NCBI RefSeq assembly: GCF_003334355.1
Contig: NZ_QOWP01000034.1
Source of the DNA: Escherichia coli
GTDB lineage: Bacteria; Pseudomonadota; Gammaproteobacteria; Enterobacterales; Enterobacteriaceae
DNA: 37,733 nt
Reading direction: 5' to 3' (one strand)
Part shown: positions 16,909-19,231 of the stretch, one piece after another
Layout of the letters: each line of letters opens with the position of its first letter
Numbering within the stretch: the first letter of the stretch is position 1
Notes under the pieces: model-generated
Told to the model about the DNA's origin: nothing
Databases searched by the model: none
What the model saw: only the letters and a program-made list of their open reading frames with translations
Made by a program: the position numbers and the translations under genes

Positions 16909-17919
16909 ATGAAGGCTGCAGTTGTTACGAAGGATCATCATGTTGACGTTACGTATAAAACACTGCGCTCACTGAAACATGGCGAAGCCCTGCTGAAAAT
17001 GGAGTGTTGTGGTGTATGTCATACCGATCTTCATGTTAAGAATGGCGATTTTGGTGACAAAACCGGCGTAATTCTGGGCCATGAAGGCATCGGTGTGGTG
17101 GCAGAAGTGGGTCCAGGTGTCACCTCATTAAAACCAGGCGATCGTGCCAGCGTGGCGTGGTTCTACGAAGGATGCGGTCATTGCGAATACTGTAACAGTG
17201 GTAACGAAACGCTCTGCCGTTCAGTTAAAAATGCCGGATACAGCGTTGATGGCGGGATGGCGGAAGAGTGCATCGTGGTCGCCGATTACGCGGTAAAAGT
17301 GCCAGATGGTCTGGACTCGGCGGCGGCCAGCAGCATTACCTGTGCGGGAGTCACCACCTACAAAGCCGTTAAGCTGTCAAAAATTCGTCCAGGGCAGTGG
17401 ATTGCTATCTACGGTCTTGGCGGTCTGGGTAACCTCGCCCTGCAATACGCGAAGAATGTCTTTAACGCCAAAGTGATCGCCATTGATGTCAATGATGAGC
17501 AGTTAAAACTGGCAACCGAAATGGGCGCAGATTTAGCGATTAACTCACACACCGAAGACGCCGCCAAAATTGTGCAGGAGAAAACTGGTGGCGCTCACGC
17601 TGCGGTGGTAACAGCGGTAGCTAAAGCTGCGTTTAACTCGGCAGTTGATGCTGTCCGTGCAGGCGGTCGTGTTGTGGCTGTCGGTCTACCGCCGGAGTCT
17701 ATGAGCCTGGATATCCCACGTCTTGTGCTGGATGGTATTGAAGTGGTCGGTTCGCTGGTCGGCACGCGCCAGGATTTAACTGAAGCCTTCCAGTTTGCCG
17801 CCGAAGGTAAAGTGGTGCCGAAAGTCGCCCTGCGTCCGTTAGCGGACATCAACACCATCTTTACTGAGATGGAAGAAGGCAAAATCCGTGGCCGCATGGT
17901 GATTGATTTCCGTCACTAA
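16909..17919 (+). CDS. adhP: Zn-dependent alcohol dehydrogenase (propanol-preferring)
   Basis: 336 aa from ATG 16909 with AAAGGAGG RBS. Zn-ADH motifs GHEGIGVV and [10 protein letters not shown]-binding GLGGLG. Confidence 0.93.
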
Positions 17920-18064
17920 GAGGCCTTTGCTGCGACTGCCATGTTCGGGTCGCAGCATCGCACACTCTCCAACATGAAATGGCTAAATGGATTATTGTTG
18001 CGTAGGAAGGAACAATAATGATAGTGTTCCCAGTGAAGGAACGCTACTGAGAGTAAAGACACTA

Positions 18065-18349
18065 ATGAAAATGGCCAATCATCCCCGCCCGGGGGACATT
18101 ATTCAGGAATCACTGGACGAACTTAATGTCAGCCTGCGCGAGTTTGCCAGAGCAATGGAAATTGCTCCCTCAACGGCAAGCCGATTGCTGACAGGAAAAG
18201 CAGCTTTGACGCCAGAAATGGCGATTAAACTTTCCGTGGTGATCGGCAGTTCGCCGCAAATGTGGCTGAATCTGCAAAACGCCTGGAGTCTGGCAGAGGC
18301 AGAAAAAACAGTGGATGTGTCGCGATTACGCCGTCTGGTTACGCAATAA
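18065..18349 (+). CDS. yddM: HigA-family antitoxin-like HTH (XRE) DNA-binding protein, apparently solitary
   Basis: 94 aa from ATG 18065 ([57 protein letters not shown]...). HTH architecture typical of HigA/VapI antidotes. No toxin-sized ORF in the 145-bp upstream gap. Confidence 0.8.
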
Positions 18350-18401
18350 AAAAATGGCACTTTATAAAGCGCCATTTAGAACTGATGACAAACGCAACAT
18401 T

Positions 18402-18499
18402 GCCTGATGCGCTACGCTTATCAGGCCTACACGTTCACTGCAATCTATTGGATTTGAAGGGTTTTTATGCCGGATAAGGCGTTCACGCCGCATCCGGCA
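18402..18499. repeat. BIME: two REP (repetitive extragenic palindromic) units, 18402-18430 and 18467-18499
   Basis: GCCTGATGCGCTACGCTTATCAGGCCTAC and ATGCCGGATAAGGCGTTCACGCCGCATCCGGCA. Near-identical copies recur at 35612-35640 and 35655-35687 in this window. Confidence 0.85.
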
Positions 18500-18529
18500 T
18501 GAACAAAGCCTACGTTGTCTACAATATGA

Positions 18530-18557
18530 AAATGGCGCCTTTTACAGCGCCATTTTC
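18530..18557 (-). terminator. 10-bp stem hairpin (AAAATGGCGC/GCGCCATTTT) downstream of fdnI, possibly bidirectional
   Basis: Perfect inverted repeat with AT-rich flanks, 21 nt past the fdnI stop on the minus strand. A related hairpin AAATGGC...GCCATTT lies at 18352-18378 after yddM. Confidence 0.65.
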
Positions 18558-18577
18558 AGCTTAAAGTTCAAAAGAGA

Positions 18578-19231
18578 TTATATCCCTTCTTCACTCTCTT
18601 TTTTCGCTTCTGCCTTCTCGATTTCACGATACCAGCGCGGATGGTGTTTCTTCGCCCAGCGACGACTTACCTTCCCTTCGATCATCCCTTTAATCGATCC
18701 TTTCACCCAAAATGCCATATACATATGGATCAGGATGGCGTGGATCAGGATGATGCCGGCAGCCGCGTGGATCAGCAGGCTGTAGCGAACAACCTGCATC
18801 GGGAAGTACTGCGCAAAGTACGGACGCCAGATAATCACCCCGGTCACCAGCAGCACGAAAATCATGCTCATGATCGACCAGAACATCATCTTTTGCCCGG
18901 CGTTGTACTTACCAACATCCGCCACTTTGTGCTCATTGCCTTTTAATACTTCGACAATGTTCAACAGCCACGGAATATCTTTCTTATCCGGGATGTTGTG
19001 ATGCACAAAACGCACAAACATAAACATCAGTGCGACGAAAATCGCAATGCCGAAGAACGGGTGCAAAATGCGTCCCATCTGCGGCGTACCGAAGGTTTGC
19101 GTCAGCCATTGCAGCGTCGGGAAGAAGAACGAAATCCCGGACAGCGCCACCAGGAAGAAGCAAATCACCACGGTCCAGTGACAGGCGCGATCAATAAATT
19201 TGGTGCGCACAATCATTTTCGACTTACTCAT
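18578..19231 (-). CDS. fdnI: Formate dehydrogenase-N gamma subunit (cytochrome b556)
   Basis: 217 aa from ATG at 19229-19231 ([20 protein letters not shown]...). Four transmembrane helices with conserved His. Start overlaps the fdnH 3' end by 8 nt. Confidence 0.92.

Follow-up and report, generated by a model that had tools for sequence, protein, structure and literature searches.

YddM of Escherichia coli, an orphan HigA-family antitoxin, as the probable survivor of an ancestral higB-higA module

The Escherichia coli DNA considered here is a stretch of 37,733 nucleotides (contig NZ_QOWP01000034.1 of assembly GCF_003334355.1; below, the window) which, from its list of open reading frames (ORFs) and the annotation of orthologous loci, is the maeA-adhP-yddM-fdnIHG segment. 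The gene at issue, yddM, begins 145 bp beyond the end of adhP: the adhP ORF ends at 17919, the spacer is 17920-18064 and the yddM ATG starts at 18065, as an initial annotation made from the sequence alone had it. That annotation also assigned to YddM the helix-turn-helix (XRE) architecture of HigA-type antitoxins, and this assignment holds. YddM scores 93.7 bits against the NCBIfam model TIGR02607, 'HigA family addiction module antitoxin' (curated cut-off 47.7 bits), over model positions 1-80 of 81, it contains the Pfam HTH_3 domain (Cro/C1-type helix-turn-helix, E 9.5e-9), and it is 100% identical over 94 amino acids to PDB 2ICP/2ICT, deposited as 'antitoxin HigA' and attributed in a review to YddM of E. 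coli CFT073 (PMC3968373). Both the model match and the helix-turn-helix/HigA fold thus place it in the HigA family.

What is missing is the partner. There is no HigB/RelE-like reading frame between adhP and yddM in the ORF list, and the orthologous toxin described below, used as a tblastn query, has no match anywhere in the 37.7-kb window, in agreement with the earlier statement that yddM has no toxin partner. In the window yddM accordingly does not follow directly on a HigB (PF05015) gene with coupling of their translation, as it does at this locus in 1331 E. coli genomes and in relatives from other genera, and a complete type II higBA module with both genes in one operon is absent. The window holds an orphan antitoxin, not a toxin-antitoxin (TA) module.

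Two possible complications at the 5′ side of yddM can be set aside. Its frame has no stop upstream as far as an ATG at 17987, which would make an ORF of 120 amino acids, and an N-terminally extended YddM was considered; it was rejected, the solved protein being 94 amino acids long. The 94-amino-acid start is taken as the real one because HigA homology begins at residue 29 of the longer ORF and because a 29-bp deletion allele, dealt with below, breaks the extension. The 14-codon ORF that had been described as the sole reading frame upstream does exist, but it is nested in a 25-codon ORF (17941-18018) and so is not the only one. Neither of these has any similarity to HigB, and as a toxin remnant both were discarded; the 14-codon ORF is irrelevant since its ATG is ATT in an allele (R1 type) of ~1060 genomes.

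The toxin that yddM lacks in the window is present at the same place in many relatives. The E. coli comparison set was 5426 complete genomes, and a megablast search with 17700-18700 of the window retrieved records whose annotation places a 'type II toxin-antitoxin system RelE/ParE family toxin' in the interval from adhP to yddM. The gene is 279 bp (92 codons) long and ends on the A of the yddM ATG, as in strains A0 34/86 and 'capsule mutant 16b'. Its product, MIMNFRHKGL...NWRITFEFVNGDAYILDYEDYH, matches Pfam PF05015 HigB-like (E 4.2e-17, residues 4-92) and, over its full length, the Proteus vulgaris HigB endoribonuclease (4MCT_B, E 1.2e-31); its match to NCBIfam RelE_StbE is below the cut-off. 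The DNA of the toxin occurs in 1331 of the 5426 genomes, with one copy in each, and among the matches listed it is beside yddM. The comparison of the adhP-yddM spacer across E. coli that the initial annotation had proposed therefore does uncover a higB-like gene there.

Polarity comes from outgroups. A scan with YddM, at one genome per species, gave 41 loci, which were then examined by tblastn with the toxin, YddM, AdhP and FdnI. The toxin-YddM pair is present in E. albertii, two other Escherichia lineages, more than 10 Citrobacter species and Pluralibacter, and also in two Enterobacter spp., one unclassified Enterobacteriaceae genome, Cedecea, Buttiauxella, Chimaeribacter and Erwinia rhapontici. 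In these outgroup pairs the toxin match stops 2 bases short of the yddM ATG, with a one-base overlap of stop and start. The gene fdnI is just downstream of the pair in Escherichia, Citrobacter, Pluralibacter, one of the two Enterobacter spp. and the unclassified Enterobacteriaceae genome. Since outgroups carry the pair at the same chromosomal position, the pair is ancestral and the toxin-less state of the window is derived. The suggestion that yddM was orphaned by loss of its toxin is strongly supported by these outgroup pairs, together with the toxin at the same site in the 1331 E. coli genomes. The reading in which we have good confidence is that an ancient chromosomal higB-higA module survives here only by its antitoxin half, yddM, which is retained under selection and probably represses itself and serves as a minor regulator.

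The frequencies of the several states in E. coli can be given directly. yddM itself is present in 5413 of the 5426 genomes, with identity of 95% or more throughout, and is near full length in 5409. A toxin-less spacer family accounts for 4089, and this with the 1331 toxin-bearing genomes makes 5420. By strain names, the window type of toxin-less allele (at least 95% identical to the window spacer; ~2950 genomes) includes K-12 derivatives and O157:H7, the R1 type (~1060) includes O104:H4 and O111:H8, and the toxin carriers include E2348/69, Nissle 1917 and 83972. Among the carriers, 545 (41%) have one identical 1-nt deletion in the toxin gene (CGCCACC-ACTCGC; CGCCACCGACT becomes CGCCACCACT; locus L002:1906-2183), which is annotated 'frameshifted' in AVS0456 and suggests one successful clone with an inactivated toxin. 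At most ~786 genomes (14%) therefore have an intact toxin gene.

Comparison of alleles also permits the anatomy of the loss to be described. In all toxin-bearing Escherichia alleles the adhP-higB spacer is 185 bp and very similar. By alignment, the window has in common with these alleles the hairpin that follows adhP (17928-17957) and a core of ~50 bp (17995-18043); the sequence between these two and the 16 nts 3′ of the core are characteristic of toxin-less alleles (Table 1). Aligned locally with the toxin operon, the 16-nt filler scores 10, where shuffles have a mean of 12.1, and so is not significantly similar to it. The nts that lead into the yddM ATG are CACTAATG in the window and CACTGATG in the allele of strain R1, while toxin-bearing alleles end in ...TATCACTGATG; the toxin gene finishes exactly as the R1 version does (...TAT CAC TGA TG). 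The last toxin codon and stop appear to be retained in the window too, which, as only 4-5 nts are involved, is suggestive. The junction ...GGAAC[G/A]CTACTGAGAGTAAAGACACT[A/G]ATG is common to the window, JS426, R1, C1 and TUM2330 alleles. Because all sampled toxin-less alleles have this junction, a single toxin-deletion event that spread to ~75% of sequenced strains is most likely.

The lineage of the window allele has lost the whole 92-codon higB together with its ribosome-binding site. About 16 nts of unrelated filler took their place, with at most the final His codon and stop being left, and ~50 bp more were lost upstream, including a U-tract after the adhP hairpin. A first alignment had suggested something simpler, a clean microhomology deletion with an ATGAA motif at each end, one at toxin codon 3 and the other at the yddM start. 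It was rejected because R1 keeps the toxin end and because the 16 nts before that end have no counterpart there. That the toxin-less spacer came from a paralogous locus was likewise considered and discarded: sensitive blastn matches this locus alone, and an apparent 'second place' in some genomes was the segment with the inverted 11-bp loop described below. One toxin-less spacer stands apart. That of O157:H7 TR01 (L045:1402-1546), seen in one genome and also 145 bp long, is a unique mosaic in the order hairpin, 35 bp of toxin-bearing-type upstream sequence, a 29-bp window-type hairpin element and, to finish, the 3′-terminal 47 bp of the toxin gene. It is an artefact of assembly or else the product of an independent deletion or recombination.

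What the deletion left in front of yddM is conserved well beyond Escherichia. The 130 bp upstream of the toxin start were aligned from 23 loci in 8 genera, together with the window spacer (n=24). Blocks kept in 21-24 of the 24 are GTTGCG (17997-18002), G-AACA (18009-18014), T18016, T18019-G-n-T-A (18019-18023), GTTCC (18026-18030), GA (18035-18036) and GGAAC (18038-18042); GTTGCG, GTTCC and GGAAC are each in 24/24, and the gaps between blocks are freely variable. The blocks build GGAACA-N10-TGTTCC and TGTTCC-N7-GGAAC(A/G), that is, two inverted repeats with a common central half-site. Palindromic operator-like sites, for which a search of 17920-18064 had been recommended, are thus present and conserved across genera. 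The first palindrome is not exceptional on its own, as it has a single perfect match in the window and 17 of 100 shuffles have at least one; the second arrangement is found in toxin-bearing alleles also (inverted repeat in L001). Every cross-genus-invariant block is retained in the window, between 17997 and 18042, so that yddM is directly behind the ancestral higBA promoter.

The elements of that promoter would be the -35-like TTGCGT and, 18 nts downstream, the extended -10-like TGaTAgtgT, with candidate HigA operators overlapping both; a transcription start is predicted near 18034. The assignment is made because of the cross-genus conservation, which is its one basis. A list of promoter signals obtained with RNA polymerase-sigma70 by systematic evolution of ligands by exponential enrichment has one at yddM/adhP (PMC3946193). 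By analogy with HigA of Proteus, Pseudomonas aeruginosa and P. putida, a YddM dimer would bind the inverted repeats and repress its own promoter. With no toxin present there would be nothing to neutralise, and no toxin-dependent modulation of the repression.

A second source of yddM transcription may be adhP. The hairpin after the adhP stop has a predicted RNA fold of -20.8 kcal/mol (z -2.95), and its stem is followed by the U-rich CCTGTTTTT in toxin-bearing alleles (L001:1758-1768) and by ATCGCACAC in the window (17958-17966). A consensus scan found no intrinsic terminator in the adhP-yddM spacer. Since the U-tract is lost in the toxin-less allele, read-through from adhP to yddM is conceivable; the adhP terminator may be weakened in K-12-type strains and yddM co-transcribed with adhP, so that some yddM transcription possibly comes from this source.

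Table 1. Features of the adhP-yddM region, in window coordinates.
Feature	Position	Strand	Basis or remark
adhP, alcohol dehydrogenase, upstream neighbour	16909..17919	+	ORF; adhP annotated in orthologous loci
Hairpin TGCTGCGAC-N12-GTCGCAGCA, just after the adhP stop	17928..17957	+	Inverted repeat; conserved in all alleles
Spacer segment specific to toxin-less alleles	17958..17994	+	Replaces ~90 bp of toxin-bearing spacer; no clear homology to it (alignments)
14-codon ORF, not a gene; overlaps promoter/operator	17974..18018	+	ORF list; ATG is ATT in R1-type allele
Perfect 9-bp inverted repeat ATTATTGTT/AACAATAAT with 11-bp loop GCGTAGGAAGG	17991..18019	+	Inverted repeat; loop flipped in ~1060 genomes
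GTTGCG block, proposed -35 of the ancestral higBA promoter (TTGCGT 17998-18003)	17997..18002	+	24/24 invariant; promoter role inferred
Palindrome GGAACAATAATGATAGTGTTCC, proposed HigA operator 1; encloses extended -10-like TGaTAgtgT 18019-18027	18009..18030	+	Inverted repeat; half-sites invariant across genera
Inverted repeat TGTTCC-N7-GGAACG, proposed operator 2; central half-site common with operator 1	18025..18043	+	GTTCC and GGAAC 24/24
16-nt filler CTACTGAGAGTAAAGA in place of toxin ribosome-binding site and ORF	18044..18059	+	Common to all toxin-less alleles
CAC TAA, probable last toxin trace: final His codon and stop overlapping yddM ATG	18060..18065	+	Allele comparison
yddM, HigA-family antitoxin/XRE helix-turn-helix, 94 amino acids	18065..18349	+	Family, domain and structure matches

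Whether the orphan is maintained is a separate matter from how it arose. A comparison of yddM from 16 Escherichia sequences gave 39 sites at which nucleotides vary, 37 of them synonymously. The other two alter the protein, in 'E. coli' SCPM-O-B-8794 and Escherichia sp. MOD1-EC7003, both of them toxin-bearing (one-genome-per-species scan). YddM is identical in 13 E. coli alleles, which are toxin-bearing, frameshifted and toxin-less of all types, and in E. albertii. The exact protein is on at least 1000 contigs of a large protein collection, in which the full-length variants among the matches listed are each on 22 contigs or fewer; the main exception to its constancy is a 73-amino-acid truncated form, and shorter 'partial' entries are also among the matches listed. 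Suggestive as this is of purifying selection on YddM in its orphan state, selection on the orphan state itself is not conclusive, because the substitutions are few and alleles are common to toxin-less and toxin-bearing strains.

Decay of the toxin with survival of the antitoxin has also occurred elsewhere. Citrobacter sp. FP75 has a ~175-bp internal deletion in the toxin gene, C. portucalensis an 11-bp frameshifting one, Xenorhabdus lircayensis a frameshifted toxin, and X. khoisanae and Chimaeribacter californicus only C-terminal remnants of it; in each the antitoxin is kept (loci L007:2895-3000, L013:2734-3000, L027, L028 and L030). No locus with toxin but without antitoxin was seen among those compared. 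Decay is expected to take the toxin of a TA module first.

The most plausible reason for retention is that YddM would now be a minor DNA-binding regulator of a few host promoters. A study in K-12 by chromatin immunoprecipitation with exonuclease treatment (ChIP-exo) reports YddM as confirmed to bind DNA, with a motif derived (PMC6237786), and a pooled perturbation experiment, also in K-12, with clustered regularly interspaced short palindromic repeats (CRISPR) found differentially expressed genes consistent with YddM binding sites (bioRxiv 10.64898/2025.12.20.695731); between them the two report a direct regulatory link as well as DNA binding. A genetic-interaction map ties yddM to stress regulators (PMC9283627), and in a screen of the Keio collection its deletion was hypersusceptible to epetraborole, an effect which was not complemented (PMC12457515). 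The idea in the initial annotation of an autonomous regulator is therefore borne out in one part, conservation arguing for selection and DNA binding in K-12 being published; the regulatory role is only partly shown.

Several observations weigh against an orphan that is under selection and represses its own promoter. A simple consensus scan did not find a canonical sigma-70 promoter in the spacer. The AGGA ribosome-binding site of the toxin is gone and what remains is GAGAG 11 nts from the ATG, so translation of yddM may be weak. In ~1060 of the 5426 genomes (~20%) an 11-bp inversion disrupts GTTGCG and turns the first half-site from GGAACA into GCAACA. The R1 loop, CCTTCCTACGC, is the exact reverse complement of the GCGTAGGAAGG of the window (L046:592-620), and this looks like a hairpin-loop (template-switch) inversion that was fixed in a large lineage. 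A minority of toxin-less genomes (C1, TUM2330) have a 29-bp deletion which removes the palindrome and the -10-like element; it lies between two GAAGGAAC direct repeats (window 18005-18042; L048:681-716, L049) and leaves yddM intact. A nonsense allele of yddM itself, W74* (TGG to TAG, yddM nt 221; L053/L054/L056:1421), occurs in 34 complete genomes, including O6:H16; the product is 73 amino acids long, the backgrounds are toxin-less, and the large protein collection has this form on 487 contigs. Within the toxin-less clade ~5 substitutions are seen, all synonymous, and the yddM of toxin-bearing T-HYM1 is identical to a toxin-less one. Finally, a higBA deletion in CFT073 was without phenotype in a mouse urinary-tract model (PMC3464220).

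Some of the same features admit a bolder interpretation, which we hold as tentative and would not favour. YddM would have been domesticated as a core-genome transcription factor, with HigB repeatedly purged, HigA left unchanged and the control region rewired from TA-style autoregulation. The purges would be the deletion in ~75% of E. coli, the frameshift in a further 10% and the independent events in Citrobacter, Xenorhabdus and Chimaeribacter; the rewiring would consist of loss of the U-tract after adhP, the 11-bp inversion in ~20% and the 29-bp operator deletion in others. If true, this would be a naturally replicated, population-scale case of a selfish addiction module turned host regulator.

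The opposite interpretation is that yddM is a neutral remnant, functionless in toxin-less strains, which persists because it is young or because it is short and harmless, and is slowly decaying. Damage to promoter and operator by the inversion and the 29-bp deletion, the W74* allele, the weak ribosome-binding site and the lack of a urinary-tract infection phenotype in CFT073 all fit with this. However, it is made unlikely by the predominance of synonymous sites (37 of 39), by the lack of any amino-acid change in the 13 E. coli alleles or E. albertii, by the near-universal presence of the gene (5413/5426), by the mostly intact antitoxin after independent toxin loss in Citrobacter, Xenorhabdus and Chimaeribacter, and by the in-vivo DNA binding and perturbation effects reported in K-12.

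Less probable again is retention of the orphan for anti-addiction, in which YddM would neutralise HigB of plasmids or mobile elements and so spare its host from post-segregational killing. The idea is established for orphan antitoxins (PMC7354431), and there are HigB homologues on 538 plasmid records, 99 of them from Escherichia. The identity of these homologues to the cognate toxin that yddM lost does not, however, exceed ~57%, and where a 'plasmid' match is near-identical, as a few are, the record is large (0.2-4.9 Mb) and in several cases chromosome-sized. Recognition between antitoxin and toxin is usually narrow, which also counts against it. For the same two features of the plasmid matches, a plasmid origin of the locus itself was rejected. 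Hardly credible, finally, is that yddM was never paired but is an ancestral solo XRE regulator which had a toxin inserted beside it at a later time, in those E. coli lineages that now carry one, since beyond the window itself and the ~75% of sequenced E. coli without toxin nothing favours it, whereas E. albertii, two other Escherichia lineages, many Citrobacter and several more distant genera all have the pair in this position, in the outgroup pairs stop and start overlap by one base and a conserved promoter precedes the toxin, and the window keeps that ancestral promoter directly before yddM as well as the CACTAATG that mirrors the toxin end.

Two features of the neighbourhood may be mentioned. 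The spacer between yddM and fdnI (window ~18385-18500) has repeats of the repetitive extragenic palindromic type, with 18385-18431 matching a median of 30 places per genome; its length varies between strains, and in some an IS200/IS605 transposase is inserted (H25, H26, L048, L049). The fdnG frame at 20121-22532 (- strand) is 803 amino acids long and orthologous records annotate a 3048-bp gene, a difference that fits the in-frame TGA selenocysteine codon of formate dehydrogenase-N.

The orphan status of yddM was already known, given that NCBI annotation calls it a HigA family antitoxin, that its structure was published as HigA and that earlier literature on K-12 had recorded it. K-12 and HS were reported to have the antitoxin alone at the yddM locus (PMC7232551), and Van Melderen and Saavedra De Bast in 2009 noted HigB homologues in CFT073, 536 and UTI89 and their absence from MG1655 and O157:H7 (PMC2654758). 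What is added here is the outgroup polarity, the population census, the non-trivial junction, the operator footprint, the frameshift sub-lineage, the inversion and deletion alleles, and the recurrence of toxin decay. The status of this K-12 y-gene is thereby settled: YddM is a true HigA with a lost toxin, and neither a mis-annotated regulator nor part of a hidden complete TA system. As 14% or less of sequenced E. coli have an intact cognate toxin, counts of 'higBA' or of TA load should treat the locus as strain-dependent. Current views of TA evolution stand, and the textbook decay in which the toxin goes first is seen in unusual detail. The locus is also a natural series for what becomes of an antitoxin after toxin loss: intact pair, frameshifted toxin, deleted toxin, inverted promoter, deleted operator and truncated antitoxin.

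The closest known system is the higB-higA of E. coli CFT073 and NRG857c ('ParE-2/HigA-2', TA20), which is at the orthologous adhP-fdnI locus, with an antitoxin 100% identical to YddM and the same promoter/operator core. Those strains carry the 92-amino-acid toxin gene overlapping the start of higA, whereas the window is without the toxin, its ribosome-binding site and ~50 bp of upstream spacer. HigB-HigA of Proteus vulgaris plasmid Rts1 (4MCT/4MCX; HigA-operator complexes 6CHV/6CF1) is more distant. The antitoxins are of the same family (YddM against 4MCX_A, E 1.3e-18), the lost toxin resembles Rts1 HigB (E 1.2e-31) down to the conserved C-terminal ...NWRITF..NGDAYIL.YEDYH, and the order is toxin-first in both. 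However, the Rts1 module is plasmid-borne and a complete addiction module, while yddM of the window is chromosomal, in a syntenic core position and toxin-less, and the operator sequences differ.

HigA of P. aeruginosa, P. putida and P. vulgaris represses its own operon through inverted repeats, and P. aeruginosa HigA (PaHigA) additionally represses the unrelated promoters of mvfR and pel (PMC6987408), which sets a precedent for general regulation by an antitoxin. PaHigA and GraA of P. putida are small XRE helix-turn-helix dimers that bind a central palindrome and flanking half-sites of their own promoters; they are still paired with toxins, and their similarity to YddM is distant (E 2e-8 to 2e-11). 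Orphan antitoxins left after toxin degradation are known in Klebsiella pneumoniae, Acinetobacter and Bartonella, the roles proposed for them being remnant, regulator and anti-addiction (PMC7354431), and K-12 is reported to have a second HigA-type orphan, ybaQ (PMC7232551). Unlike the case with other orphan antitoxins, for yddM the intact ancestral state, the junction and the population frequencies have been directly reconstructed.

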